DNA from: a virus
Strand: one strand, 5' to 3'
IMG/VR virus record: IMGVR_UViG_3300016466_000859
Coordinates: 66,948 to 130,947 of that record
Length of the DNA stretch: 64,000 nucleotides
A program made the position numbers and the translations under genes. Positions 15,846-61,138 of the stretch are shown here, piece after piece; positions within the stretch are counted from its first letter, which is position 1; each line of letters begins with the position of its first letter. Below the pieces are notes generated by a model that worked only from the letters and a program-made list of their open reading frames with translations, did not search any database and was not told the origin of the DNA.

Positions 15846-16186
15846 CAATGATTCCTTTTGCCTTGGAACACACAATTGAACAACATATGACTATCTCCAT
15901 CGTTTATGACTCTATGAAAGGCCCCATCGGGGATCAAGACCACATCACCGGGACCCACGGCAAACGGCTCATCGGTTTCTTCGCCTAAGATCATGTGACC
16001 GCGTCCCTGTACAAAAAAGTATACTTCTTCCTGCCCTGCATGTCTATGACCACGAGTTTGTTTTCCACGATACAGCCATGTAGAACTCAGCACGAGGTTA
16101 TTGAGGTCTCGGTTGTCTTTGAGTCGATAAACCTCATTGTCTTTGACGACGTCGCCGCCGACGTCATGTATGTGATATTTCTTCAT
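15845..16186 (-). CDS. Cupin-domain protein
   Basis: HRHAGQEEVYFF and IPDGAFHRV cupin motifs. Confidence 0.85.
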   Translation of the reverse strand: MKKYHIHDVGGDVVKDNEVYRLKDNRDLNNLVLSSTWLYRGKQTRGHRHAGQEEVYFFVQGRGHMILGEETDEPFAVGPGDVVLIPDGAFHRVINDGDSHMLFNCVFQGKRNH

Positions 16187-16571
16187 CTAAATATCTCTTT
16201 AGTTCTTTGTCTGTGGGCTTGACAGTGTAGTTGTTTTTGAAAAAGATTTCATATGAATCCGACCCGTATTTGCCGATGCCATACAACATTGTAGCATCTT
16301 GTTTGTCCCAAGTCAAATAGTCCCGACTCATGCCCATCAACCTTTGATAGCGCACATTGACCATCCCCAAGGGCTTTAGGATGCTTTTGACAAACTCTTC
16401 GTCGGCATCCAACAATGCATGAGGATTAGGGAACCAAAACAGGAATTCGGGCAAAGTCATTTTGACTGGCTTTCTCCCTGTTTGGTTCAGCATGATCACT
16501 CCTACCATGTGTTCCCACTCGTTGCGTATCTGTTGTTGTACCATCAAATCATCGCGCAAAGGTTCGAACAT
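16164..16571 (-). CDS. HhH-GPD (MBD4-like) DNA glycosylase
   Basis: IMLNQT, LKPLGM, LYGIGKYGSDSY helix-hairpin-helix. Confidence 0.78.
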   Translation of the reverse strand: MFEPLRDDLMVQQQIRNEWEHMVGVIMLNQTGRKPVKMTLPEFLFWFPNPHALLDADEEFVKSILKPLGMVNVRYQRLMGMSRDYLTWDKQDATMLYGIGKYGSDSYEIFFKNNYTVKPTDKELKRYLDEEISHT

Positions 16572-16573
16572 CG

Positions 16574-16948
16574 TTAATCCTTTTTTGATAGAAACGGTGT
16601 TAGATTGGGAGGAATCCATCCCTCGGGTTTGAGTACTTTGCCATCCTCGCGCTTGCGTACCTTACCGGTTTCGCTGTCGATTTTGGCAAAGTTGGTACGC
16701 ATGACTTCGTTCCAGGCGGCTTCGGCGTCCATGCCGGCAGAATGTATGGCACCAATGGTGACGACCAGTATATCGATCAATGCGTCGAGTTGCTCAACAG
16801 CATCGGCATCTAGTAAGGCATTTATAAGCTCTTGGTGCTCTTCTTTGATCAATTTGAGATACATGTTGTATTGATCGACATTCCAGCCTTTTACTGTTTG
16901 ATCGCAGGCTCGCATGAACCGCTCTTGGTCTTGGAAAGGGTTGGTCAC
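16574..16948 (-). CDS. MazG-like / all-alpha NTP pyrophosphohydrolase
   Basis: IKEEHQEL, DALIDILVV, EVMRTNFAK, RKREDGKVLKP. Confidence 0.85.
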   Translation of the reverse strand: MTNPFQDQERFMRACDQTVKGWNVDQYNMYLKLIKEEHQELINALLDADAVEQLDALIDILVVTIGAIHSAGMDAEAAWNEVMRTNFAKIDSETGKVRKREDGKVLKPEGWIPPNLTPFLSKKD

Positions 16949-17598: not shown

Positions 17599-18417
17599 CT
17601 AGTCCATGAAAAATCGCTGGTACCATGGCAGCATTTCGGTCTGATAATCTACTTCTATGTCCTTGAGTTGATTGTACACGATCTTTTTAGTAATATCAAG
17701 TCGTTCTTGTTTAGTTTTTGCTCCTAAAACCACCACTATGAAGTTGCGATTGTTTTTTTCCACCATGAGTGCCACACACCACCCCGCGGCTGACGTAAAT
17801 CCGGTCTTAGAAATAACGATCTCGTCGAACTCAAACAGCAAAGGACGATTGGTATTTTCCAGTTCGATGGTGCGAACACGCTGCCGAAGATTGATGTCAA
17901 ACAGAACCTGTTTCTGCACCGAAGTCTCTACTATAAAAGGATACAAAGCCGCGGCCTTGATCAATTCTATCACTTCTCCTGCAGTGGCACGATTATTGGC
18001 ACTTAGGCCCGACGCATCTTCGAATCGAGCGGTAGCCATGCCCAATTTCTTAGCTCGATGATTCATGGCTCGTATAAAAGCCTTCTCGCCACCAGGGAAA
18101 TCAGCGGCCATGGCATCAGCGGCACGGTTGTCGCTCCTGATCAGCATGGCCCGCATGATGTCACGTCTTGTGTGCAGACCGGCTGGCAACTTTCCGCCAG
18201 GTTTGATTACAATATAACGATCTAAGTTGCGATCATGATCTAGAGCTATCATGGCTGTCATGATTTTGGTAATGCTGGCAATGCTCCTGGGTATGTTGGA
18301 GTTATTGCCCATTATTACCTCACCGCGTGTGGTGTCATATAAAATCACCGACGAATCGCGTGTCTGTGCTGACGCTGAACTAAAAACGACAAATAATAAA
18401 AATACAAAATATTTCAT
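17599..18417 (-). CDS. D-Ala-D-Ala carboxypeptidase/endopeptidase (peptidase S11, PBP7-like)
   Basis: Signal peptide; SITK (SxxK), SDN (SxN), FEDASGL, KTG. Confidence 0.9.
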   Translation of the reverse strand: MKYFVFLLFVVFSSASAQTRDSSVILYDTTRGEVIMGNNSNIPRSIASITKIMTAMIALDHDRNLDRYIVIKPGGKLPAGLHTRRDIMRAMLIRSDNRAADAMAADFPGGEKAFIRAMNHRAKKLGMATARFEDASGLSANNRATAGEVIELIKAAALYPFIVETSVQKQVLFDINLRQRVRTIELENTNRPLLFEFDEIVISKTGFTSAAGWCVALMVEKNNRNFIVVVLGAKTKQERLDITKKIVYNQLKDIEVDYQTEMLPWYQRFFMD

Positions 18418-18808: not shown

Positions 18809-19385
18809 TTATATCCTAATGTGTTGTTTTTGGACAAATACCTCTTTTACTAGATCGATTGATTCATGGAAGTGTATGCTAAACCATATCCTAGATTTGT
18901 CATTGAACACTCGGTGATATTGAGTGATGTTGATGATGGTTGGCAACATGTTTTTACCAGTGTAGTAAAAATCATTTTTATCATCGGGATCATAAACCAC
19001 TCCCACAGCGTCATTTTTGTGTAACGGATATACTAGGCTAGCTTGCCCGTTTTTGATGCTGTCGCGATGTCGAGGTACATCGCGGCTGCTGTAACAGATA
19101 GTAGCAGGAGTGAATGTGAGCTCAGGCAATGCTGTATGGAATCGTTGTTGCAGGTCTTCGGTTTCTGGCAAACCACCCATGACAAAGAAATCTTCGCTGG
19201 GGCCACTCTTAGAGATCCAGCCGCCGCTGGGAATTTCTGCCACTACACTGGCACCATTTTCGTATAACACATGATCACGATACTTGTTGGTTTTGATAAA
19301 TTCTTCGGCTATGCCGGTGATTTTTTTAATCATTGGCTCCCACTCGTAATCAATGTAGATCGCAGGATGGAATCCCAACAGCATC
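18809..19385 (-). CDS. Possible 2OG-Fe(II) oxygenase-fold protein
   Basis: HRD (HxD), YHRV, RIWFSI; TGATG coupling to the upstream gene. Confidence 0.5.
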
Positions 19386-19965
19386 ACACATGTTCCTCGT
19401 TGGGATTCCAGCGACACCACCATTCTTCCCAGGGAAACACGATCCATTGTGGATCTTCGAACTTGTTAATGGTCTCAGCGGCATAGTTGGGATGCAATGT
19501 GCTTTCGCTGCTTTCGTTGTCATAGAGCACTGCTACACGCACGTTTTTGCCCCAGACCTCGGACCAACGTGGGTGGTTGGGCAAACATCCACTGGGCCAA
19601 TCTTTTTTTATCCAATTCAGCGTGGCACCTGAATCATTGATGTCATCTACGATCAAGATGTTTTTGGCGTGTAAGGAATAATCAAAATCGGCCAAGGTCT
19701 GTTCTTCCTTTGGTACATAACCAAATGCGTCTTCGGCCATCCAAAGATTGCTCTCACAATCTCCGTCCTCGCCGCCGTCGCGTAACTTTACCTTGAGAGT
19801 TTCCATGGGACGATCGAGATACTGGCTTATCAGATTGGCCGGAGTCAGTCCTCCTCGAGTGATACCAACCACATAATCGGGCACCCATTGATCCAACCAC
19901 ATTTGACGGATCAATTCTTGAACTTGTCGTTGGACATCGTTCCAACTCACATAGACTTTTTTCAT
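19384..19965 (-). CDS. Type I phosphoribosyltransferase (Gpt-like)
   Basis: VVGITRGGL, ILIVDDINDSGAT PRPP loop, WIVFPWE. Confidence 0.9.
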   Translation of the reverse strand: MKKVYVSWNDVQRQVQELIRQMWLDQWVPDYVVGITRGGLTPANLISQYLDRPMETLKVKLRDGGEDGDCESNLWMAEDAFGYVPKEEQTLADFDYSLHAKNILIVDDINDSGATLNWIKKDWPSGCLPNHPRWSEVWGKNVRVAVLYDNESSESTLHPNYAAETINKFEDPQWIVFPWEEWWCRWNPNEEHV

Positions 19966-30062: not shown

Positions 30063-31163
30063 TTAAGCCAATAAAACTCTTCTTTTGGCGAAATCTTGCA
30101 AGGGCGCAGGCATGAGATCAAACAACCGGTCTCCTTTTAGTCGATCCATCATCAGCATGTGTGTAACGGAATGCAAAAACAAATGCTCGGTATCACCGAT
30201 TTTGGATTTTGCCAGTTTGAGCACCTGGTTGTTATGCAGTTGATTTCGATCATTGGCAAATTCCACCTCGGGCACAAGATTCGCTAATTCATATGGCAAG
30301 GCTGACAGCGACAGAAAATCTGGTCCTTCGAGTATCGAAGCTTTCAGTAAAATATCCCGCTCTTGGCACCAAGTGACCAGATCCGGTAGGAACCAAACAT
30401 TCAACAATCCAACAGTGCAAAACACAGATATTTCTGTGTTGGGACGTTGTTGTCGGAAACCCAACAAGGAGTCGATGTTCTTTGTGGCACGGTTCCAATC
30501 CAAGCCCGACCTAATATATTCCACCGGCTCACCGGCGGCCTCGAGACTGGCATAGACTTTGATCTTTTTGAATTTTGGCCAATAGTCAAACACAGATCGT
30601 CCTTGATAACTCAAAGTGCTGAGATTGGTATTGTATCTGAGAGTGATATTTTTGCTATGATCATTGACTATAAGCCTTTCCAGTAACTGCCAATGATCGG
30701 GGTTTAACATGGGTTCACCACCGGTGAAATAGATCTCTTCGAGTCCAGATTCTGATATCTCTGCCAGCATTGATGATATGTCAAAATTTTCAAACTCGAG
30801 ATCTCCCACCAACTTGGTCCAGCTACTGCTGAACGCCGGGCCGCACATGCGGCAAGTGAGATTGCAGGTGTTGTTGTTGCGTAGATCGAGATAACGTATG
30901 CGATCTCGTTGATCGGGATTGCTGCCGTAGTTTTCTCGATAGGAATTCGTGCCATTCTGTTCATCCATCCAGCATTTACGGCAACCGGTTGGATAGGTTC
31001 CCTGCGACATCTGTTCCTGCAAATCAGCAAAGGTGTCGCGGCCCTGGAATTGGTCGCTGTCTCTGGCCAGTTGATAGTCGTAGATACAGCAAGGAGCGAT
31101 CTTACCATTGGGATATATGGTGATGCTGTTCCATACAGCATTGCAGGGAGACGAGCATTTCAT
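30063..31163 (-). CDS. Radical SAM protein with an N-terminal Cys-rich (SPASM/twitch-like) segment
   Basis: CNLTCRMC, YFTGGEP, YNTN; N-terminal C...PCC...CRKC. Confidence 0.88.
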   Translation of the reverse strand: MKCSSPCNAVWNSITIYPNGKIAPCCIYDYQLARDSDQFQGRDTFADLQEQMSQGTYPTGCRKCWMDEQNGTNSYRENYGSNPDQRDRIRYLDLRNNNTCNLTCRMCGPAFSSSWTKLVGDLEFENFDISSMLAEISESGLEEIYFTGGEPMLNPDHWQLLERLIVNDHSKNITLRYNTNLSTLSYQGRSVFDYWPKFKKIKVYASLEAAGEPVEYIRSGLDWNRATKNIDSLLGFRQQRPNTEISVFCTVGLLNVWFLPDLVTWCQERDILLKASILEGPDFLSLSALPYELANLVPEVEFANDRNQLHNNQVLKLAKSKIGDTEHLFLHSVTHMLMMDRLKGDRLFDLMPAPLQDFAKRRVLLA

Positions 31164-34868: not shown

Positions 34869-35555
34869 TTATAACACGAGTTTGAAACTTTTTAATTGTT
34901 TTTCTTTCTCGATTCGAGGATAATTTTTCAACCAACTACACTCTGACCAAGGTAAATTTTCCATTTCGTAGAATAATGTGTGCTGCCAAACTTGTGAATA
35001 CCAATAAACATCTTGATCATAAAAATAAGTCAACGTACCCGAAAGATCATTTTGGTCTCTGATATTTTCTATTTTAGCCGAAACTTTCTTGAAAAAATTA
35101 TTACTGGTATTCATGCCCGGAATAGCATTTTCATCGATGTGTATTCCGTGCTCCTGCAATAGTTTTTTCACACAGCGTTCCGATGACACATGTGGATGAT
35201 CTAACATTATCCAGTCGATTAACATCATCTTTTCAGCAAAGACCGTCGACAAAGGATAACTATGAAGATCAAAAACTGCTGTTCCCAACAGTTTTAGAAA
35301 CCTTGGATCGTCGACTATGTCAAATAAATCATACTGATACAGGGCTTGAACAGTACCTTTAAGGTGTCTTTTGTAAGGATGCATTATGTGTGCAAACACA
35401 TGTTGTTTATCCCAGTCAATGCTGTCTGTTTGAATCGACCCCCATCCTAAAAGATTCTTAAAGAAATGCGTATATGAGGTGCTGGCATTTTTGGTTATAG
35501 GTACATAAACCAAATTGTCGCGGCATAATGCCTCCATTTTATAAAGTACGGCCAA
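34869..35555 (-). CDS. Sulfotransferase-like protein
   Basis: YVPITKNASTS, IMHPYKR, FDLHSYP. Confidence 0.5.
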   Translation of the reverse strand: MAVLYKMEALCRDNLVYVPITKNASTSYTHFFKNLLGWGSIQTDSIDWDKQHVFAHIMHPYKRHLKGTVQALYQYDLFDIVDDPRFLKLLGTAVFDLHSYPLSTVFAEKMMLIDWIMLDHPHVSSERCVKKLLQEHGIHIDENAIPGMNTSNNFFKKVSAKIENIRDQNDLSGTLTYFYDQDVYWYSQVWQHTLFYEMENLPWSECSWLKNYPRIEKEKQLKSFKLVL

Positions 35556-35799
35556 CAGTTTCCAGGATTGTGGTCAGCTCTTCGTGATCTTTGGTAGTAT
35601 CGCCGAACTTGCTCTTTTGTGCAACACGAATGGCTTTTTTGAGCACAGCAGGTTTGACTTCCAGTTCTTCGGCGATGGCTTTGACTGTGTCATTGAGCCC
35701 GGCTGTGAGATCTTCGACTTCCTGCATGACAGCGATGCCTTCGTTGATTAGTTGTGTTAATTTGGCTTTTTGTTCGGCGCTGAACATCCTTGACGACAT
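35539..35799 (-). CDS. Small dsDNA-binding protein (T4 DsbA/GapR-like)
   Basis: AGGAG SD; helical ...VKAIAEELEVKPAVLKKAIR pattern. Confidence 0.5.
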   Translation of the reverse strand: MSSRMFSAEQKAKLTQLINEGIAVMQEVEDLTAGLNDTVKAIAEELEVKPAVLKKAIRVAQKSKFGDTTKDHEELTTILETVGRTL

Positions 35800-35849
35800 A
35801 CCATTCTCCTTGTTAAAAAACAATAGTATAACTGATTATCCTACCGCGG

Positions 35850-37031
35850 TCAACCGCTAAAAGATTCCAACATACCTAACGCAGCCTTTTTGACACCGGG
35901 CTCCCAGGGATGGTATCCGACCCAATCTTGATCGTAATACAAGGGAGATACCGACAACGATCGCAGTTCAAAATCGGGACTTTTGGAAGCTATTTTGATC
36001 TTTTCGTTGGCATACATTTCATTTTTGTCAAACTCAAAGATATATTTTTTTGCCTCCCATTTGATACCGCGCTTGCCTTGATCTATATGTTTGAAATGAT
36101 TTTTGAGATTGCTATAGCTCCATTGCTGGAACTCATCGGTATTGAAATAGGTGTAATTGGCATAGTCAACACGATGTTTGCGATCAATGGGTGCTTTGTA
36201 ATCTTTTCGTAGATGCATGAACGGGCGCACGATTGCAGTAGGCCATTTGAAATTGAAATAGTGCCACCACCACCAGTCAGTTATAGTCGTGACATTTTCG
36301 GGATTGACTTCTTCGAGATTGCGCGACGCCCTATCAACATACCATTGACCGAACCCAGCCTCTCTGTTGATCGATCGATCCATGTCAAAGAATTCTGATA
36401 TAAGATGTAGATTCTCGCGCCATGGAAAATTGTGTCGACCGGTATCAAAGAGATGGCGGAACGCCGGAGAAGTTGGGCCAAACACGCAATCCCCGGGATC
36501 GCCATGAATCAACATATACTTTTCCAAGGTCGTGTTACACATGTCAAATTCTGACAGGTGTAGACATTTTAGTTTTGACGAAATAAAGTTTTTGTAAAAA
36601 TCAAAATTTTCAATGATAGATTCTGTACTGAGTACAATTTCGAGATTGTCAAGATCGGCGGCTGAAATATTTTTCAAGAACGATACCAACACAGCAGTAG
36701 AATCTATACCACCGCTCCACATCAAGGCTATTTTCTTCTTGGATCGTTTTGCCAACTCATTGAGCTCGATTGCACGCTGATCAAATAGATCTGAAAGCTT
36801 ATAGTCTACGAATTTAAGTTCCGGCATGGGATACATGTCATCAACTGGGGCCTGCCACGGAGTGTTGAACTTCCCTTTTCGAGCTCGAAGATCTTTGGCA
36901 CCGATCACAAGATGTGCAAATTTGCTCCAATAATGTCCATTGGGATTTTGTATCCGCGAATGTGTGTTAAAGTCAGCTATTAGATGATTATCAACCGCGA
37001 TGCTGTTGCGGAGTCCCTCGACGTGATTCAC
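35850..37031 (-). CDS. PP-loop ATP pyrophosphatase (Asn-synthetase-C-like), copy 3
   Basis: MWSGGIDST, HGDPGDC, DWWWWHYFNFKW, EFQQWSY; GTGA overlap with the partner stop codon. Confidence 0.82.
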   Translation of the reverse strand: MNHVEGLRNSIAVDNHLIADFNTHSRIQNPNGHYWSKFAHLVIGAKDLRARKGKFNTPWQAPVDDMYPMPELKFVDYKLSDLFDQRAIELNELAKRSKKKIALMWSGGIDSTAVLVSFLKNISAADLDNLEIVLSTESIIENFDFYKNFISSKLKCLHLSEFDMCNTTLEKYMLIHGDPGDCVFGPTSPAFRHLFDTGRHNFPWRENLHLISEFFDMDRSINREAGFGQWYVDRASRNLEEVNPENVTTITDWWWWHYFNFKWPTAIVRPFMHLRKDYKAPIDRKHRVDYANYTYFNTDEFQQWSYSNLKNHFKHIDQGKRGIKWEAKKYIFEFDKNEMYANEKIKIASKSPDFELRSLSVSPLYYDQDWVGYHPWEPGVKKAALGMLESFSG

Positions 37032-37705
37032 GCGATTTCCTTGCAAAATTTATCTATAGACTCACGGAAAAAATAAGATTTCATTGGAATCAGTTGTGCT
37101 TGGGTAACAAGATCTTGTTTTATTTCGTTTGTTGGCTTGCTATAATCTATCTTCAATAGTATTTCGAATATTTCGGCCGAGAACGAATCAAATATATCGA
37201 GTACACGGTATTTGTTTTTTATTTCTTTTTCAATGATTGATCTAATCTGTTGATCTTTTGGCATTAAAGTCGACACGAATTTTTTAAAAGATCTTAGGCC
37301 CTTTTCCAAGAACTCCACTTGCGAAAGCTCCTTGCTGACGGTCTGATTTTTGATTTTTTCCAAAAGCAAAATCACGTCCGATAGGAATAACAAGGTTTTT
37401 TGCGAGCAAAGGTCTTTGTCATTGACAGGAACGGTGTTGACGATCAGTCGATATGAAGGATTAGTCACATACATGTCGACTTCGATTCGCATTTTTTCTC
37501 CGGTGGCAATACCAATGGTGAGGCAATTGCCGGTGGTAAGTAAGTTCGTTCGGTAGTTCGAGATGCCGCTGAGATTGACCATATAAAGCAATTCGTGATT
37601 CATGGTCAAGAACTGTATTTGCTTTAGTACCTCATAATCCTTGCTTACCAAAATAAATCTATTTTTTTGCGAACTGAAAAGCCCGAAGTCAGGATCTTTC
37701 GTCAT
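37028..37705 (-). CDS. Unknown partner protein, copy 3
   Basis: FGLFSSQKNRFILVSKDYEVLKQIQ, homologous to the other two partners. Confidence 0.75.
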   Translation of the reverse strand: MTKDPDFGLFSSQKNRFILVSKDYEVLKQIQFLTMNHELLYMVNLSGISNYRTNLLTTGNCLTIGIATGEKMRIEVDMYVTNPSYRLIVNTVPVNDKDLCSQKTLLFLSDVILLLEKIKNQTVSKELSQVEFLEKGLRSFKKFVSTLMPKDQQIRSIIEKEIKNKYRVLDIFDSFSAEIFEILLKIDYSKPTNEIKQDLVTQAQLIPMKSYFFRESIDKFCKEIA

Positions 37706-37707
37706 GA

Positions 37708-38874
37708 TCAGCCTTTGTAAGTTTCTAGCAAATAAAAAGATTCGTCGTCGAGACTTCCTTCCCAACGATAATATCCTATCCAATTTTCGTCGTAGCATAT
37801 AGGTAGATCAGAAGTACCTCTCATCACCGAATTACCCGGCGCTCCTGACATCTTGGTCTTGTTTTTAAAGTACAATTCGTTTTTGTCAAACTCGTAGATA
37901 TATCTTCGAGCTTCAATTTTATGAGTACTTAGGTCTTTGCCGACGAGATTTTTAAGATTGGTATAACTCCAATTCTGGAATTCGGGTGTATTGTAAAAAG
38001 TTGTGTTGGCAAAATCTTTTTGATTTTCTTTACTGATACCGATTTTAAAGTCGTTGCGACTAAATGTAAAAGGTCGTTGGCAGCTGAATTCCCATTTGAA
38101 ATTGTAATAGGTCCACCACCACCAATCGGATACTGTTGTGACATTCGCCGGATTGACTTCCTTGAGATTGGCCGTGACTTTTTCAACCCACCATTTACCA
38201 AATCCTTCGACATAATGAGGAGCCCCTTCAGATGGTTGTATGAGCTCGGCCATACGATCTAGATGTTTTTCGTAGGGTTCAAGATGTTGCCCAGAATCGA
38301 TCAAAGGACGATAAGCGGGTGTCGACGGACCATAGATACAATCTGCAGGATCTCCGTGTATGATTATATTCTTGGAGAGAACATCATCATTCATGTCTAA
38401 CTTAGTATAGTTCATACAAGCGATCTTGTTAGAAATAAATTTTTGATAGAACTCGATATTCTCAATTATGGAGTTAGTGTTCATCACTATCACGAGATTG
38501 TCTAGATCTTGTTTAGACCAGTTTTTTATCAATGACACAAGCACCGTGGTTGAATCTATACCACCACTCCATAGAGCCATGACTTTTTTTCCTTGGAGTT
38601 TTGATATCGCTAGAATTTCTAACGCACGTTGGTCCAATAGGTCACTGAGGCTATTTGTGTTTTCTCGGAACTCCGGTGCAGCATAGAGTGGATTACTCGG
38701 TGCACCCCACGGAGTAATGAAAGTTCCTTGTCTGGCCCGCAGGTCATGGGCACCGATAATATGATTGATCGTGCCTTTCCAACGTAGTCCGTGTATGTTA
38801 CGACGCCGTCGATTGAGATTTATATATCTCACATCGGCCATTATACTATTTTTAAGAGCAGCAGGTCTAATCAT
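37708..38874 (-). CDS. PP-loop ATP pyrophosphatase (Asn-synthetase-C-like), copy 2
   Basis: LWSGGIDST, HGDPADC, DWWWWTYYNFKW, EFQNWSY. Confidence 0.85.
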   Translation of the reverse strand: MIRPAALKNSIMADVRYINLNRRRRNIHGLRWKGTINHIIGAHDLRARQGTFITPWGAPSNPLYAAPEFRENTNSLSDLLDQRALEILAISKLQGKKVMALWSGGIDSTTVLVSLIKNWSKQDLDNLVIVMNTNSIIENIEFYQKFISNKIACMNYTKLDMNDDVLSKNIIIHGDPADCIYGPSTPAYRPLIDSGQHLEPYEKHLDRMAELIQPSEGAPHYVEGFGKWWVEKVTANLKEVNPANVTTVSDWWWWTYYNFKWEFSCQRPFTFSRNDFKIGISKENQKDFANTTFYNTPEFQNWSYTNLKNLVGKDLSTHKIEARRYIYEFDKNELYFKNKTKMSGAPGNSVMRGTSDLPICYDENWIGYYRWEGSLDDESFYLLETYKG

Positions 38875-39581
38875 AAGTGTGTCAACATGAGTTTTTTTAC
38901 TATGTCTCCGAGGAAAATTTTATCTGATGTGTTCGACAAGTATTCCCGATTACCAAAGCTAAAAGATTCAATCATTTTTTTCAAAGACTGAGTAGCATCG
39001 TCACGGAAAAAATCTATATCCATGATGCTTTTAAAAATCTCGGACTTCAGTGGTCTTGCTCGCTGTATAGATTTCTGTCTTTCTTCGATGTCTGCTGCGA
39101 TAAATTCTTCAAATACTTTATCGTTGGGTATCACGGTATTTAAAAATGATTTCAGCTCTAGCAATCCCGAAATTTCGTCTTGATATCTCTCAATCTCTTT
39201 ATTTTCAAAGTCCTTGAAAAATTTTTCAACAGGTCCAAGTAGTTTTTGTAAACTTACAAGGTTGTCTCTGAGTATTTTGTTGTGAGGTCTTTTTGATTTT
39301 GTGATCCCGCATCCGTAGATTCCGGGGTCGCTATCGAATCTAATGTACTTGATCATCGGAGCCGATACTCCAAACTGATGACAGTTTTCATTGTTGATGT
39401 CACCAATGGCGTCGACGCCTGGTAATTTAGAGATGTTAATACAGTAAAAAAACTTTTGCTTGATCAACAATATCTGTATCAATTTGATGAGTTGATAATT
39501 TTTTTCTACGATATAAAATGAATTATCTCGACTATCGAGCAAACCATAGAGATCTTTTTCGTTTTCTAACATGGAAATCAT
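38871..39581 (-). CDS. Unknown partner protein, copy 2
   Basis: YGLLDSRDNSFYIVEKNYQLIKLIQ; ATGA coupling at both ends. Confidence 0.78.
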   Translation of the reverse strand: MISMLENEKDLYGLLDSRDNSFYIVEKNYQLIKLIQILLIKQKFFYCINISKLPGVDAIGDINNENCHQFGVSAPMIKYIRFDSDPGIYGCGITKSKRPHNKILRDNLVSLQKLLGPVEKFFKDFENKEIERYQDEISGLLELKSFLNTVIPNDKVFEEFIAADIEERQKSIQRARPLKSEIFKSIMDIDFFRDDATQSLKKMIESFSFGNREYLSNTSDKIFLGDIVKKLMLTHL

Positions 39582-40780
39582 CCTTGGAAATCATTAAGGC
39601 AATCTAGCATGGAGTCCTTCACTAAAGGATCCTCCCAATGGTATCCTACCCAGTTTTCATCAAATAATACAGGAACACCCCGATAATGTAAATCGATATG
39701 ATTGGTAACTCGGCTGGCCTGGAATTTTTTCTTGTTATGATATGTATAGTCTCCGTTGAAATCCAGGATATATTTTTTTACTTCTGGTTTATATGCGTCC
39801 GCTGGATTTTTGCCAATCAGACGATGTAGGTTGGTATAGCTCCAGTCTTGGAACTCTTGTGACGAATAAAACGTATTCCGAGAAAAAAACTCATAATTTG
39901 ATTTTGATATCGGTTTAGAATAGTTCTTGCGGCACCAGGCCAATGGACGCACGATGCTTCCGTACCATTTAAAATTGAAATATTGCCACCACCACCAATC
40001 GCATACAGTTTCAACCCCATCAAAAGAAAGCTCGTCGATCACGGAAGATATTTTATCTATGTACCATTCGCCGATGTTGACAGTACCAGGATAATTAGGG
40101 ACCTGTTCGTTGATGGATCTTATCATTGAGTCCCTGTGATGTTTCCATGGCTCGAGATGTCGTTCATTTTGAGCGAGTTTGGCATACATCATTCCGCTGG
40201 GTCCGTACAAACAATTGGCAGGATCGCCATGCAGAATGATATTCTTGTCAAGGAAGTCGTTATTAACATCGACGTCAAGCCAATTCACTATCTTTAGTTT
40301 TTTAGAAATATAACTTTGATAAAATATTGGGTTTTCGACGAAGCTGTTGACACTCATCGCAATGATAATTTTTTCTTGGTCCGCCCGGGAAAGATTCTTT
40401 AAAAATGCTGTCAACATCGAAGTCGAGTCTACGCCACCGCTCCACTGTATCACGATATTTTTATTTGTTTTCACAGCGATATCAAATATCTCTAGTGCCC
40501 GCTGATCATAGATTTCGCTCAACTTGAGAGAAGTGTGCTGCGGTAACCTGGTTACAAACGATCGATCTATGGGGGCGTTCCATGGAGTAGAAAAAGATCC
40601 GTATCTAGCTCGGATATCTAAGGTCATAGGGATCAGCGAAAAAATCGAAAGCCATTCTGAGCCTGCTCTTGAAAGAGAGATCTTTTCTGTCTTTTGTATA
40701 TTGTGTCTCATGATTAAATTTCTCAATGCGGCATTGTCAATGAACGCACTTGTTGAAATAATTTTTTTAAAATCAATCAT
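39578..40780 (-). CDS. PP-loop ATP pyrophosphatase (Asn-synthetase-C-like), copy 1
   Basis: QWSGGVDST, HGDPANC, DWWWWQYFNFKW, EFQDWSY. Confidence 0.85.
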   Translation of the reverse strand: MIDFKKIISTSAFIDNAALRNLIMRHNIQKTEKISLSRAGSEWLSIFSLIPMTLDIRARYGSFSTPWNAPIDRSFVTRLPQHTSLKLSEIYDQRALEIFDIAVKTNKNIVIQWSGGVDSTSMLTAFLKNLSRADQEKIIIAMSVNSFVENPIFYQSYISKKLKIVNWLDVDVNNDFLDKNIILHGDPANCLYGPSGMMYAKLAQNERHLEPWKHHRDSMIRSINEQVPNYPGTVNIGEWYIDKISSVIDELSFDGVETVCDWWWWQYFNFKWYGSIVRPLAWCRKNYSKPISKSNYEFFSRNTFYSSQEFQDWSYTNLHRLIGKNPADAYKPEVKKYILDFNGDYTYHNKKKFQASRVTNHIDLHYRGVPVLFDENWVGYHWEDPLVKDSMLDCLNDFQG

Positions 40781-41583
40781 TTTAGTAACAATAATAAACC
40801 TGTGCTTAGTTTTTCTTTCAAGACTTGCTGTGCTATATGATAATTGCTTTTTGAAATTAATCTTTCACATAAGTTCATATCGAGTCTTTTGTTGGTAGAC
40901 TGTATCTTTCTGACTTCTAGAGAATACTTGCCTAAATCGATTCCTTCTATCTTTTTTTGTAAACTATTTTTAAAATCTTGTATCGGTTGATCGTAGTCAA
41001 CAAAGATCAGCGCCCGCAATATTTTTTTTCTAAACTCTTTTATTTCACCAATCGCGAATGATAGTTCTTGTGTGTCTCTGTCAGCAATTTTATTAAAGTC
41101 TTGATCATCAAATACATCACTGACAAAATCGCGAGCAATCTCTAATCCTTTTATTTCTTGTTGCCAATCATTGGTCAATATTTCTGTGTATTCTCTGTAT
41201 CTTTCCTCGAGCATTTTGATTACTTGATAGCAAAGGAACAGCTTGTTTTGTAGTTCTAGATCGTTTGCCTTGGGCAGGGAATCTTTTTTTATCAATGACT
41301 GGCCTTTTAATTTTTTGAGTTCAACGTCGAGCTCGAGATGCAATCTTCGAGCATTTGACAAAGTGTACATTAAACAGTTGGAATTGTCTATGGCCGAATC
41401 GTGAGTTAATTGGCTGAGATCAGCGATGTAAAACAGCTCAGATCTCATGATGCAGAGTTGCAAGAGCTTTAAATGCCGATAGTCATTTGACAGCAGGTAC
41501 AGCCGATCAAGGCTCGGCGAGATCAGCCCATACCATTTTTTTGGTTGGTAAGAACCATTGAAAAAATATTTTTGAGGTATCAT
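40777..41583 (-). CDS. Unknown partner protein, copy 1
   Basis: YGLISPSLDRLYLLSNDYRHLKLLQ; TAAATA at 41589-41594, 5 nt before ATG. Confidence 0.78.
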   Translation of the reverse strand: MIPQKYFFNGSYQPKKWYGLISPSLDRLYLLSNDYRHLKLLQLCIMRSELFYIADLSQLTHDSAIDNSNCLMYTLSNARRLHLELDVELKKLKGQSLIKKDSLPKANDLELQNKLFLCYQVIKMLEERYREYTEILTNDWQQEIKGLEIARDFVSDVFDDQDFNKIADRDTQELSFAIGEIKEFRKKILRALIFVDYDQPIQDFKNSLQKKIEGIDLGKYSLEVRKIQSTNKRLDMNLCERLISKSNYHIAQQVLKEKLSTGLLLLLK

Positions 41584-41620
41584 CTAGGTATTTAATAATA
41601 TCTCTGGTACCCCATTTTTT

Positions 41621-41782
41621 TCACCAGTGGTGGATAACACCCGCTATGATAAACAAGTTTGTGATCACATATAAAAGCACGATTCCAGTACGTACCAGTG
41701 CTATGTAATCTGCTTCAAGATTGTTTTCACTGCCCTTTGGACCGAGAGACTTGGCCCAAACACGCCATATGTGTCTGATCAT
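41621..41782 (-). CDS. Small membrane protein, 53 aa (not in ORF track)
   Basis: MIRHIWRVWAKSLGPKGSENNLEADYIALVRTGIVLLYVITNLFIIAGVIHHW; resembles a small protein common in T4-like aquatic phages (recollection). Confidence 0.7.
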   Translation of the reverse strand: MIRHIWRVWAKSLGPKGSENNLEADYIALVRTGIVLLYVITNLFIIAGVIHHW

Positions 41783-58125: not shown

Positions 58126-58971
58126 TTACTTGGTAGCACCAGTGATATGGTTTTTGATATATCTATCAATCCATGCATCGACTCTGACTCTGAGTTCTTT
58201 GGGCGATGTTGTTGGAAATACCTTGAAATTTCCTTCTCTGAGCAGGTCCTGGAACCCTTGGCTGTCGATGGCTTTTTTAATCTCTGCCGTCGATTGCGGG
58301 TCGTTGGCGCCATTTTTCAATAGTACCACCGGGATTTTTAGATCGGGGATTTTCATCTTTAGCTGTTTTCCGATGTAATCAGCGTCAGAAGGATCCGTGC
58401 TGGCGATACAATCCATGGCTCCACTGTCTTGATGCTTTCTAGCGGTGGACGCACCGATTAGTCCCAACTCTAGATCTCCGCTCAACACTTGCATCAAAAT
58501 ATCTCGGCTGCCTTGGAACGGAAGAGCCTTGAGTGTTGTGCCATTCTGTGCATTGATATCGTTGACCAACGGATCAGGCAACTGAACCGACGGAATACCA
58601 AATTTTGCGTTTGGTGTAGAGAAATTTTTATTCGATCCTTTTTTGGTACAGACCTTGTAGTACTGTTCTCCGTACCAAACTATGTTCTCATCGTTGATGG
58701 TGGGATAGCATGTCTGACCTTTGGAAACCGCAGAAAATGCCAGCGTGGCGCCAAATATCAACAAAGAATCCTTGGTTTCGGTGAATTTTCTCACACCGTC
58801 CTGGCAATTCTCAGACTGATAAAATTTCGACCCAGCGAGATTTTTTTGATAGGTCATGGCCACAGTTGTGGTCGGGGAAGTCTTGGAAGACGCTGTGATC
58901 ACTGTGAGCTCAGTGGCCTGCAAGGTCGCACTGATAGATAAAATGGCCGCGGCCGCTATGAATTTTTTCAT
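58126..58971 (-). CDS. tctC: TctC/Bug-like periplasmic binding protein, paralog B
   Basis: Signal peptide; LKALPFQGSRDILMQVLSGDLELG; paralogous to 59011-59838. Confidence 0.65.
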   Translation of the reverse strand: MKKFIAAAAILSISATLQATELTVITASSKTSPTTTVAMTYQKNLAGSKFYQSENCQDGVRKFTETKDSLLIFGATLAFSAVSKGQTCYPTINDENIVWYGEQYYKVCTKKGSNKNFSTPNAKFGIPSVQLPDPLVNDINAQNGTTLKALPFQGSRDILMQVLSGDLELGLIGASTARKHQDSGAMDCIASTDPSDADYIGKQLKMKIPDLKIPVVLLKNGANDPQSTAEIKKAIDSQGFQDLLREGNFKVFPTTSPKELRVRVDAWIDRYIKNHITGATK

Positions 58972-59010
58972 TGATTTTTCCTTAAAGTGGGATTTTTCAA
59001 GCTTGAAAAA

Positions 59011-59838
59011 TTATTTACCATAGCTTTCGTGACTGCGTTGAATATATCTTCGTGTTTTTGCTACCAGAGTATCGGAACCTTGTAGCTGTACTTCGGCATA
59101 TTGACCTTGCTCCAAGAGACCTTTCACGGTATCGCTGCTGATGGCTGCACGGGCTCGATCCACCGTTTTTTCATCGTTGATGTTGTGTAAGATCAAAGTC
59201 TGTATACGGATGTCGGGCTGCTTCATTTTCAGCTGATTGCCCCAGAACTTGCTGTCTCTGGGATCGGTACTGGCTATGCATTCAATGGTGCCAGATCGAC
59301 TTTGTTTGTCTGCGGTGCTGGTACCAATCAAGCCGAGGTCTAGGTCGCCACTGAGCACTTGTAGGAGCACGGCCTGGCTGCCAGAGAACGGTAAAGCCTT
59401 GAGAGTGGTACTGTTTTGCTGATTAATGTCTGCAACGATGGCCACCACAGGCTGCACTGATGCCATTCCCAATGTTGCGCCGGGCGACTGGAAATTTTTG
59501 CCTGAACCACGTTTGGTACAAATCTGATAGTACTGCTCACCGTAAAATAAGATATTATTTTTAGTGATAGTGATATCACAGGGCTGGTTTTTGCGAAGAC
59601 CAGTGATGGCCAAGTTGGTGCCATAAGCGATGATGCTGTTTGGCGTTGTTTCAAATTTCTTTACAGCATCCTGGCAGCTTTCTCCCTGATAGTATCGGCT
59701 ATCGGCGAGATTTTTTTGCACTGTCGTGGCCAATGCGGCCACTGGAGAAGTAGCGGCCTGCGGATTGATCACTGTGATTTCAGGTGCGGCCCAGGCCACT
59801 GCCGGGAACATCATGGTCGTTAGTAGTTTTTTAAGCAT
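59011..59838 (-). CDS. tctC: TctC/Bug-like periplasmic binding protein, paralog A
   Basis: Signal peptide; LKALPFSGSQAVLLQVLSGDLDLG (Bug-type PYxG..A...V.G motif); next to tctA. Confidence 0.65.
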   Translation of the reverse strand: MLKKLLTTMMFPAVAWAAPEITVINPQAATSPVAALATTVQKNLADSRYYQGESCQDAVKKFETTPNSIIAYGTNLAITGLRKNQPCDITITKNNILFYGEQYYQICTKRGSGKNFQSPGATLGMASVQPVVAIVADINQQNSTTLKALPFSGSQAVLLQVLSGDLDLGLIGTSTADKQSRSGTIECIASTDPRDSKFWGNQLKMKQPDIRIQTLILHNINDEKTVDRARAAISSDTVKGLLEQGQYAEVQLQGSDTLVAKTRRYIQRSHESYGK

Positions 59839-59851
59839 GTAAAATTCCTTT

Positions 59852-61138
59852 CTAAAGTTGTGCTATGACTTGTATAGCTGTCCATATCACTTTGTCGCCC
59901 AAGATGAAGGCAAACAGCATGGGTATGGGGTCTATGCCTTTGCGGTCCAACCATAGACCGATAAGGCTAAAAAATAAAAACAGCGCGATGTACTTGATGA
60001 TGCCTAGTTCAGAATAATAAAAATCGATAAATCCCAGGGCCGCTATCAGCACCGCTAATATCAAGCGGAACCTAGATTGCAATACCTGCAAAGCCCGGCT
60101 ATAGAAATCGATCAGTCTAGTACTGAGGAAATAGAAGACCATGGCCAAGGCCACGCAGATCAGCTGTATCTGTATCAACATGCGACCTATGCCTTCGATG
60201 TCTGAAAGATCAGGCCAATCAACTAATTTGGTTTGCAGGATCTGCAGTACGATGACTTCGCCAATGGTAATGGGTATGCCCACTATCAACAAAGGCAGCA
60301 TGCTAGTGATCATGGCCGAATTATTGGCACTTTCGGCAGCCGTGACACGCCGGCCAAGATCTCGTTCGGACTGGTAGGCTATGTTGCTGCTGAGAGTGGC
60401 TGACGGCCCTGGTATGAGGCCAATGAAGCTACCGATAATTCCGCCTCTGACTGCGCTACCCCAGGGCATGTCACCAATCTGGTTGGTGTCGTTCCTGGAG
60501 CGCCAATGATCTGCATCGTATTTTTTAAACAGTTCGGGCACAATCAGCAGACCCAAGGCCATGGAAAAGAAAGTGGTGTTCTGGAATATCAACTGCACCG
60601 CAAACCAAGCATCAGGCAAAGCATAATTGTTTTTGGGACCCAGTATGATACCGATAGCCACCAAGATGGCCGCGGCTATCCTATTACTGCTGAGATAGAT
60701 AAAAAATCCCAGGGCCAATGAAAATATCACGGCCTTGACCCAGATCTTGTTAAACCAAAACATGAAATCGTAGCTGCCGATCAAGAACACAGCCACGCAC
60801 ACCACAGAAGCGGCCACCGATGCTGCCAATGATCCACGAGCGGTGTAGAGTATCAGCTTCAATCGGTCCGAGATGCCCAAGGGTTTGATGGCATTGATGT
60901 AGATGAGGCTGGATGTCTCTCCGGGCACACCGGTAGTGATGGCAGCCACGCTGCCGAAATATTGCGAGCCGATGATCACCGCGGCCCAGTAAACGAATAT
61001 CTCAAACACCGACATGATGTCAGCAAAGGGAAATATCAGCATCATACCTAAAGCAATGGGCATGGCTGGGAACAGTCCAACTAGCATGCCGGCCATGATG
61101 CCCGCGAATAAGACTACGATGGTAGAAAGTTCGATCAA
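59852..61138 (-). CDS. tctA: TctA-like tripartite tricarboxylate transporter large subunit
   Basis: Polytopic; GVPGETSS, GLIPGPSAT, AAESANNS, GIP, PMLFAFILG. Confidence 0.82.
   Translation of the reverse strand: MIELSTIVVLFAGIMAGMLVGLFPAMPIALGMMLIFPFADIMSVFEIFVYWAAVIIGSQYFGSVAAITTGVPGETSSLIYINAIKPLGISDRLKLILYTARGSLAASVAASVVCVAVFLIGSYDFMFWFNKIWVKAVIFSLALGFFIYLSSNRIAAAILVAIGIILGPKNNYALPDAWFAVQLIFQNTTFFSMALGLLIVPELFKKYDADHWRSRNDTNQIGDMPWGSAVRGGIIGSFIGLIPGPSATLSSNIAYQSERDLGRRVTAAESANNSAMITSMLPLLIVGIPITIGEVIVLQILQTKLVDWPDLSDIEGIGRMLIQIQLICVALAMVFYFLSTRLIDFYSRALQVLQSRFRLILAVLIAALGFIDFYYSELGIIKYIALFLFFSLIGLWLDRKGIDPIPMLFAFILGDKVIWTAIQVIAQL

Follow-up and report, generated by a model that had tools for sequence, protein, structure and literature searches.

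A tandemly triplicated gene pair of a giant freshwater phage probably encodes partner-dependent AsnB-type ligases

Organization of the operon

The stretch of DNA analyzed here, referred to below as the window, comprises 64,000 nucleotides (nt; positions 66,948 to 130,947) of IMG/VR virus record IMGVR_UViG_3300016466_000859, and it carries an operon in which genes for a small protein, here called the partner, alternate with genes for a PP-loop enzyme. The window is the last 64 kb of this 131-kb record, and since the record is rated 37% complete by CheckV, a full genome of about 350 kb is suggested. The source is a giant uncultured freshwater phage, whose family-B DNA polymerase is nearest to those of Sinorhizobium phage Phosso and Agrobacterium phage Atu_ph07 (49–52% identity). 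No tRNA genes were found in the window.

Six open reading frames (ORFs) occupy positions 35850–41583, all on the minus strand, in the order partner 1, enzyme 1, partner 2, enzyme 2, partner 3, enzyme 3. They form three consecutive pairs, as an earlier sequence-only reading of the window had described, and make up a two-gene module repeated three times in tandem. Partner 1 (40777–41583), of 268 amino acids (aa), is the first gene of the operon; it matches the hidden Markov model (HMM) of the partner family and belongs to the position-1 orthogroup in the trees described below. Its end is joined by an ATGA overlap to enzyme 1 (39578–40780, 400 aa), a predicted glutaminase-less AsnB-type ligase with the PP-loop WSGGVDST. 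Partner 2 (38871–39581, 236 aa), which likewise matches the partner HMM, has ATGA overlaps at both ends, with enzyme 1 on one side and enzyme 2 (37708–38874, 388 aa) on the other. Partner 3 (37028–37705, 225 aa) is counted from the ATG at 37705, which lies 2 nt past the enzyme 2 stop in the junction TGA-TC-ATG, and its own stop is overlapped in a GTGA by the GTG start of enzyme 3 (35850–37031, 393 aa). The sequence thus bears out the earlier statement that four of the five junctions are 4-nt overlaps and the fifth a 2-nt gap. Enzyme 3 is 95% identical to its orthologue in L004, the closest related locus.

The operon has a GC content of 0.392, as against 0.465 for the remaining window. No other 5.7-kb stretch of the window is as poor in GC, and the value lies about 3.4 standard deviations under the mean of sliding stretches. 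The AT-richness that had been noted by eye was therefore upheld by computation, whereas the GC skew, computed across the window, was not distinctive. The block had also been said to start at a TAAATA box, and this candidate phage promoter element indeed lies at 41588–41593 (minus strand), beginning 11 nt before the ATG of partner 1. The box ends just 5 nt before this ATG, with no Shine-Dalgarno sequence visible there, and the same hexamer is found about 30 nt before the starts of the isocitrate lyase (ICL) and methyltransferase genes. If the box is the promoter, partner 1 would be nearly leaderless. The isocitrate lyase gene sits directly upstream of the operon; reading by eye located a short hydrophobic ORF of about 54 codons (~41620–41781, minus strand) between it and partner 1. 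The surroundings of the operon in the window are replication and metabolic genes, not structural genes.

The enzyme family

The three enzymes are 37–46% identical to one another (enzyme 1 versus 2, 40%; enzyme 3 versus 2, 46%). In a family alignment of 41 sequences, the SGGxDST motif (S103, G104, G105, D107, S108 and T109) is invariant, and it is present in all three window copies. The HGDPxD, WW..K W, RP and Q.W blocks reach a conservation of at least 90%, so that the shared motifs quoted in the sequence-only reading are real. The alignment also delineated the conserved family-specific blocks RAR.G.F.TPW, HGDPxDC..GPS and DWWWW.Y.NFKW, as well as a second conserved block, G-D-x-x-D...G-P-S.

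The AlphaFold2 model of enzyme 2 is of high confidence, with a predicted local distance difference test (pLDDT) score of 93 and a predicted template modelling (pTM) score of 0.91. The structural comparison proposed earlier was made independently of Foldseek, against 48,161 PDB representatives. The best matches were the hydroxyamidotransferase TsnB9 (Z 12.3 over 287 residues), human asparagine synthetase (ASNS; 10.9), beta-lactam synthetase (10.4), Escherichia coli AsnB (10.4) and the carbapenam synthetase CarA (9.9). All of the top 12 PDB entries are AsnB-family synthetase domains (Z 9.1–12.3, 187–287 residues aligned), followed after a step down by GMP and NAD synthetases at Z values of at most 8.4. 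Identity to the solved AsnB-class chains is 8–17%. Because the 12 best entries all belong to the AsnB family and are followed by this step, the enzymes are best classified as stand-alone synthetase domains of the AsnB structural class, that is, as predicted PP-loop adenylating ligases lacking a glutaminase, whose activity would be that of the superfamily.

Curated sequence models give a different picture, since no Pfam, NCBIfam, PADLOC or PHROGs model matched the enzymes at threshold. The sub-threshold matches cover 25–80 residues around the PP-loop and are to QueC-like, LarE, DndC, TilS and PAPS-reductase models. Pfam Asn_synthase (PF00733) did not match at E values up to 1, whereas the positive control, the phage ligase SpCmoY, matched it at E 4e-15; TIGR01536 scored 12 bits against a cut-off of 267. 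Pfam QueC gave no match either, and a PHROG QueC-like match spans just 26–30 PP-loop residues. A search of the ESM Atlas with the enzyme returned only unnamed viral clusters. No GATase or other glutaminase domain was found in these proteins of 388–400 aa, and no fused relatives of at least 680 aa were found. The earlier description of PP-loop enzymes without a glutaminase domain is supported by both the SGGxDST alignment and the fold matches.

The C-termini of the enzymes show a regularity of their own. Among 90 distinct viral enzyme ORFs, 57 of the 60 that belong to the main, window-like clade (loci L004–L050) terminate exactly in (F/Y)-x-Gly-COOH, as in FSG, YKG or FQG. The corresponding C-termini in the window lie at 35850–35861, 37708–37719 and 39578–39589. 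Distant phage enzymes and those of Candidate Phyla Radiation (CPR) bacteria end instead near a Y-x-P-N-N-(D/S)-F motif.

The partner family

The window partners are only 21–25% identical to one another, yet they recognize each other in BLASTP at E 7e-10 and 2e-15 (partner 1 versus the other two) and 1e-13, indicating from sequence that they are true paralogues. A partner profile built from 53 members retrieved 481 clusters at 50% identity among 1.84 billion representatives, and the best 150 of these 481 clusters are all stand-alone proteins of about 130–300 aa, without fusions.

The AlphaFold2 model of partner 3 (pLDDT 93.3) comprises an alpha/beta domain (residues 1–90) followed by a helical bundle. 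Foldseek found no match to this model at E below 0.1, and VIA-align gave Z scores of at most 7.4 that concern the generic helical part only, the N-terminal domain having been barely tested and not searched on its own. There was no match of the N-terminal nucleophile (Ntn) type. A profile search of PDB sequences with the partner returned designed helical proteins only, the ESM Atlas gave no usable match, and Pfam, PHROGs, NCBIfam and PADLOC gave nothing. The likeness to lasso B/RRE proteins that had been suggested for the partners was not recovered, as the model, tested mainly in its helical part, gives neither an RRE nor any other clear fold.

Among the 53 partner sequences, not a single polar residue is invariant. 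The best-kept ones are K28 and Q31 (79% each), D151 (83%) and D187 (70%, otherwise mostly Asn, which accounts for 26%). Only M1 and L9 reach at least 90% conservation, and neither terminus is conserved; the window partners begin with MIP, MIS and MTK, without a conserved Gly2. Since no polar residue is invariant, the partner looks non-catalytic and resembles a structural subunit, which fits the scaffold or specificity role put forward in the sequence-only reading. A split-off glutaminase or a sulfur carrier was ruled out, because the cysteine of the 'NC' motif is not family-wide and no polar residue is invariant. The partner also looks unlike a QatB-type or ubiquitin-type acceptor, given that its termini and polar residues are not conserved.

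Partner and enzyme as an evolutionary unit

A co-occurrence profile was computed over 75 viral loci fetched with the enzyme profile, and the partner family lies directly upstream of 60 of their 113 enzyme ORFs. Most of the remaining enzyme ORFs are preceded by a different ORF of 180–250 aa that overlaps the enzyme start, and one such second upstream group shares homology with the gene that precedes the enzyme in Patescibacteria (CPR) loci (hhalign probability 94.8%). A natural fusion was found as well. Locus L064 (3–1814, plus strand), which is cut by the contig end, has a single frame in which the C-terminal portion of a partner is linked by about 50 residues of collagen-like Gly-X-Y sequence to a complete enzyme.

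When maximum-likelihood trees were built for the enzymes and the partners of 16 phages, both recovered the same three positional orthogroups, each splitting into the same two phage sublineages, and the phages with two pairs retain pairs 2 and 3. The congruence of the two trees therefore indicates, at the sequence level, that duplication affected the entire cassette, at an early date that precedes the divergence of the related phages, and that the copies have since co-evolved. In comparison with L004, the ratios of nonsynonymous to synonymous substitution rates (dN/dS) are 0.02–0.11 in those cases in which synonymous sites are unsaturated, and the dN of each partner is 2–4 times that of its enzyme. 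Each copy is under purifying selection. The upstream position, the translational coupling, the natural fusion and the congruent trees together support the earlier notion that each enzyme is tied to its own diverged partner.

Distribution and gene neighborhoods

Relatives of the enzymes number 430 in IMG/VR and 128 among species-representative bacterial genomes (24–30% identity), where all 128 are named hypothetical. Enzyme 2 has 87 metagenomic homologues, none of them with a Pfam domain. Source databases call the family 'hypothetical' or annotate it automatically as 'Asparagine synthase' or 'NH3-dependent NAD+ synthetase'; some of the structural twins (TM 0.8) that BFVD contains for uncultured Caudovirales bear the former automatic name. 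No match was found among GenBank phages by tblastn with enzyme 2, partner 2 or the neighboring methyltransferase, nor by megablast with the region. A full-text literature search yielded no description of the family among the papers that it returned, and neither Pfam, NCBIfam, PADLOC nor the annotated PHROGs contain an entry for it, in agreement with the claim that the module is undescribed.

In 37 of 76 loci, which form the lineage of the window, the pair is followed directly by a DsbA-like gene and the gene for DNA polymerase B. The DsbA-like gene of the window (35539–35823, minus strand; cluster c2) encodes 94 aa, has a weak Pfam Phage_DsbA match and a match to phrog_639, a transcriptional regulator; it is given as context only, and its counterpart follows the last enzyme in 36 related loci. 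Between it and the polymerase lies a 228-aa ORF (34869–35555, minus strand; GC 0.364), which is present in only four related loci. It has no PDB relative, hhalign shows no relation to the partners, which rejects it as a partner relative, and its N-terminal ..PITKNASTS.. stretch may resemble the PAPS-binding loop of sulfotransferases. A radical SAM gene family (cluster c21; in the window 30063–31163, minus strand, downstream of the polymerase) recurs near ligase pairs (L011, L048, L055 and L062), with 10 copies in 7 loci of three otherwise different types.

The annotated families that recur beside the pair comprise ferritin, desaturase, dCMP deaminase, DsbA-like protein, PolB, methyltransferase, DctP, TctA/TctC, ClpP, cupin and 2-oxoglutarate (2OG) oxygenase. 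Of 79 bacterial loci, 43 have a cupin beside the pair, as do several phage loci, and 2OG oxygenases and PaaK-like ligases recur near it. The order is small membrane protein, enzyme, cupin in Saprospiraceae, and cupin, 127-aa protein, enzyme in Flavobacteriia and Cytophagia. In CPR bacteria, a 230-aa partner precedes the enzyme among PaaK-like ligases and beta-propeller proteins. In prophage-like regions of Xanthomonas albilineans (L115, L143), Undibacterium (L135, L150) and Comamonas (L127), a 199-aa upstream gene and the enzyme are followed by a cupin, a 2OG-Fe(II) oxygenase and a DUF5675 protein. The genes preceding these prophage pairs we take, from their N-terminal sequences only, to be Mu-type DNA-circulation and baseplate-J proteins. 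Enzyme copies with 45% and 59% identity to enzyme 2 occur on two short Polynucleobacter contigs from metagenome-assembled genomes, L079 and L104, the first of which has partner genes too. Both contigs probably represent phage DNA that was binned together with its host, a hint at Polynucleobacter as the host genus.

Proposed function and its alternatives

We consider it very likely that the operon encodes partner-dependent AsnB-type adenylating ligases. In the mechanism that we propose, the PP-loop of the enzyme would bind ATP and adenylate the carboxyl group of a substrate, and an amine would displace AMP to give an amide, as expected from the superfamily. The partner, a fast-evolving and presumably non-catalytic subunit, would be produced in step with the enzyme through the start/stop overlap; it probably forms a 1:1 complex with it, replacing the missing N-terminal domain so as to shape or gate the substrate site. 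Since each copy has been kept under purifying selection, the three pairs would most likely make three different amides.

As for the substrates, organic or amino acids, possibly imported through phage-encoded solute-binding proteins, would be acted upon rather than proteins or DNA. Small carboxylic acids are our leading guess, a tentative one, because DctP, TctA or TctC genes recur nearby. Outside the PolB-syntenic lineage, one of these genes lies within 4.5 kb of the enzyme in 22 of 39 loci (15 of 26 arrangements), and within 1 kb in 11 loci of several layouts. The phage itself has a TctA gene (59915–61120, minus strand; E 4e-34), and the Pfam TctC model found no match in the whole record; two ORFs of 275–281 aa (58126–59838, minus strand) that adjoin the TctA gene would be very divergent TctC proteins at best. 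The isocitrate lyase gene next to the operon also fits this substrate class. In pathways of small molecules, cupins, 2OG oxygenases and PaaK-like ligases typically serve for tailoring or activation, and to our knowledge the solved relatives (AsnB, beta-lactam synthetase, CarA and TsnB9) all act on small molecules. The context elsewhere, with its carboxylate-binding and transport genes, cupins, 2OG oxygenases and PaaK-like ligases, thus leans toward small-molecule chemistry. A cupin of the type found with the pair (210–260 aa) was not found in this phage, where the search gave only a 113-aa cupin within the deazaguanine island. Taken as a whole, the statement that three pairs form a partner-dependent ligase module acting on small carboxylates falls somewhat short of even odds.

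Several points weigh against it. The activity, the complex and the substrate are proposals drawn from sequences and models, and the role of the partner would follow from its position, its co-evolution and one fusion. In the lineage of the window, the pair adjoins the DNA polymerase, and a transport gene is in view in only 1 of 37 loci. The transporter and cupin links come from distant relatives (25–33% identity), whose substrate may differ, and they could reflect the clustering of auxiliary genes in variable regions. Finally, the sole biochemically tested phage AsnB-like ligase that we found acts on DNA (PMC12783734).

This last enzyme, CmoY of Synechococcus phage S-B43 (SpCmoY), is an AsnB-like ligase of 271 aa, which couples glycine to 5-carboxymethylcytosine (5cxmC) in DNA (PMC12783734), and it is a precedent for an alternative in which the window ligases adenylate a carboxyl-bearing base in phage DNA and attach an amine, yielding up to three adducts. 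We regard this as unlikely. The base would have to carry a handle other than 5cxmC, the obvious candidate being 7-carboxy-7-deazaguanine from a deazaguanine island 10–25 kb off, which holds QueD and FolE without a QueC match; the full version, in which three pairs act on this different handle with up to three amines and the partner picks the amine or the sequence context, is improbable, but it would define a new family of amide hypermodifications of purines, in which the specificity subunit is built in. The adjacency of the pair to the DsbA-like and polymerase genes agrees with a role on DNA, although it may be inherited gene order. QueD is found in 10 of 17 large pair-bearing records, including all that are at least 55% complete except G007, a complete genome in which the pair is present and QueD was not found; conversely, QueD occurs in 108 GenBank phages, whereas neither enzyme 2 nor partner 2 matched any GenBank phage record. 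The GDPxDCxxGPS block of the enzymes aligns with the matching GIGADGYYGVS block of SpCmoY, but the hhalign match spans just 32 columns (44.7% probability, E 2e-4), a similarity at the superfamily level only, and the enzyme family profile finds no match in the S-B43 genome. SpCmoY has no partner gene, CmoA (TIGR00740) and a C5-methyltransferase (PF00145) occur in none of the 17 pair-bearing viral records, two of them complete, and the window methyltransferase matches SpCmoA only at a BLASTP E of 0.28. Bacterial homologues, moreover, occur in three-gene cassettes with a cupin, and their recurring neighbors include no DNA-modification genes. The CmoY pathway as such is ruled out in this phage group by the lack of CmoA and PF00145 in these records and of a profile match in S-B43, and an obligate link between the pair and 7-deazaguanine genes is unsupported either way, as QueD and the pair each occur without the other. 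The Pfam TGT model is too insensitive for phage DpdA, which it missed even in the record of the window. Interleaved with QueD and FolE in the deazaguanine region are genes, all on the minus strand, for an HhH-GPD glycosylase-like protein (16164–16619), a D-Ala-D-Ala carboxypeptidase (Peptidase_S11, E 3e-39; 17599–18417) and a phosphoribosyltransferase (19384–19965).

The remaining alternatives concern proteins and ordinary metabolism. Lasso-peptide cyclases belong to the AsnB superfamily, and a non-catalytic-looking partner that co-evolves with its enzyme might present a target protein or peptide, like an RRE/B1 protein, for amide or isopeptide formation; the pair also follows the baseplate-J-like genes, so named from N-terminal sequences only, of the Xanthomonas, Undibacterium and Comamonas prophages. 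This is a rather improbable explanation, as the partner model has no RRE- or PqqD-like match (Foldseek E at least 0.1; VIA Z at most 7.4, helical part only), and neither a precursor gene nor a leader or transglutaminase-type peptidase is among the annotated recurrent neighbor families, ORFs under 80 aa not having been searched for. The operon of the window lies among replication and metabolic genes, and nothing points to the isopeptide links on virion proteins, or to the lasso-like setting, that the sequence-only reading had envisaged. The strict layout of one partner per enzyme would also suit a partner that is itself the second substrate, receiving a small carboxylate on a terminus or side chain; in QatB-QatC and CdnD-Cap9, the PP-loop enzymes QatC and Cap9 form a stable complex with a partner that inserts its Gly2 amine into the active site (PMC13376578). 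The window partners have no conserved Gly2 or C-terminus and no invariant Lys, Asp or Glu, their best-kept Asp being Asn in 26%, neither protein matches PADLOC, and the enzyme fold is AsnB-like rather than QueC-like, making such an arrangement very improbable. Just as improbable is that the enzymes are ordinary ammonia-dependent asparagine or NAD synthetases, carried as auxiliary metabolic genes behind unrelated upstream genes. The automatic annotations of some relatives would favor it, and DctP-type receptors can carry C4-dicarboxylates such as aspartate, but the Asn_synthase and NAD_synthase models do not match, TIGR01536 scores far under its cut-off, three paralogues have long been kept at 37–46% identity, each with a co-evolving partner, and the fused partner-enzyme form exists.

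The module is widespread in phages and bacteria, as the 430 IMG/VR and 128 bacterial enzyme relatives and the 481 partner clusters attest, and the window offers a clean case of it, with three co-evolved pairs in one translationally coupled operon and congruent trees. If the partner sets the substrate choice of a minimal AsnB-type ligase, this would be a new way to build amide-forming enzymes, and an operon with three ancient, co-evolved pairs would serve as a ready test set for how specificity is encoded. Depending on the substrate, the module would represent an unrecognized phage route for converting imported organic acids, a new DNA hypermodification or a protein-tagging system, and any of these three outcomes would alter the annotation of hundreds of phage genomes.

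Comparison with known systems

With the AsnB class (ASNS, beta-lactam synthetase, CarA and TsnB9), the window enzymes share the SGGxDS PP-loop, a second acidic G..D block, a matching Rossmann-like core and a helical C-terminal subdomain, and adenylate-then-amide chemistry would be expected of them. They differ in lacking the N-terminal Ntn glutaminase-type domain, in lying under every curated sequence model, in carrying their own Trp-rich DWWWW.Y.NFKW helix and N-terminal RAR.G.F.TPW block, and in having an obligatory separate partner gene. SpCmoY is likewise a phage-encoded, glutaminase-less, AsnB-like, ATP-dependent amide ligase in a DNA-metabolism neighborhood, with an aligning G-x-x-x-D...G-x-S block. 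However, it has 271 aa, matches Pfam Asn_synthase, lies between cmoA and cmoX and has no partner gene, whereas the window family has no profile-level match to it and its carriers are without CmoA and CmoX.

The QatB-QatC and CdnD-Cap9 systems similarly pair a PP-loop adenylating enzyme with a dedicated, motif-less protein (PMC13376578). In these anti-phage defense systems, QatC and Cap9 are QueC-like zinc proteins and the partner is a Gly2 acceptor, while the window enzyme is AsnB-like, its partner has no conserved Gly2, there is no PADLOC match, and the carrier is itself a phage. In lasso-peptide biosynthesis, a ligase of the AsnB superfamily is helped by a small non-catalytic recognition protein (RRE/B1), a division of labor that resembles the one proposed here. 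Lasso cyclases, however, retain an inactive N-terminal domain and are accompanied by a precursor peptide and a leader peptidase, whereas the window partner has no RRE-like match and no leader peptidase is among the annotated recurrent neighbors (ORFs under 80 aa were not searched for). Each of the closest functional precedents, SpCmoY, QatBC/Cap9-CdnD and the lasso cyclase with its RRE, shares one feature with the module of this phage and differs from it in others.

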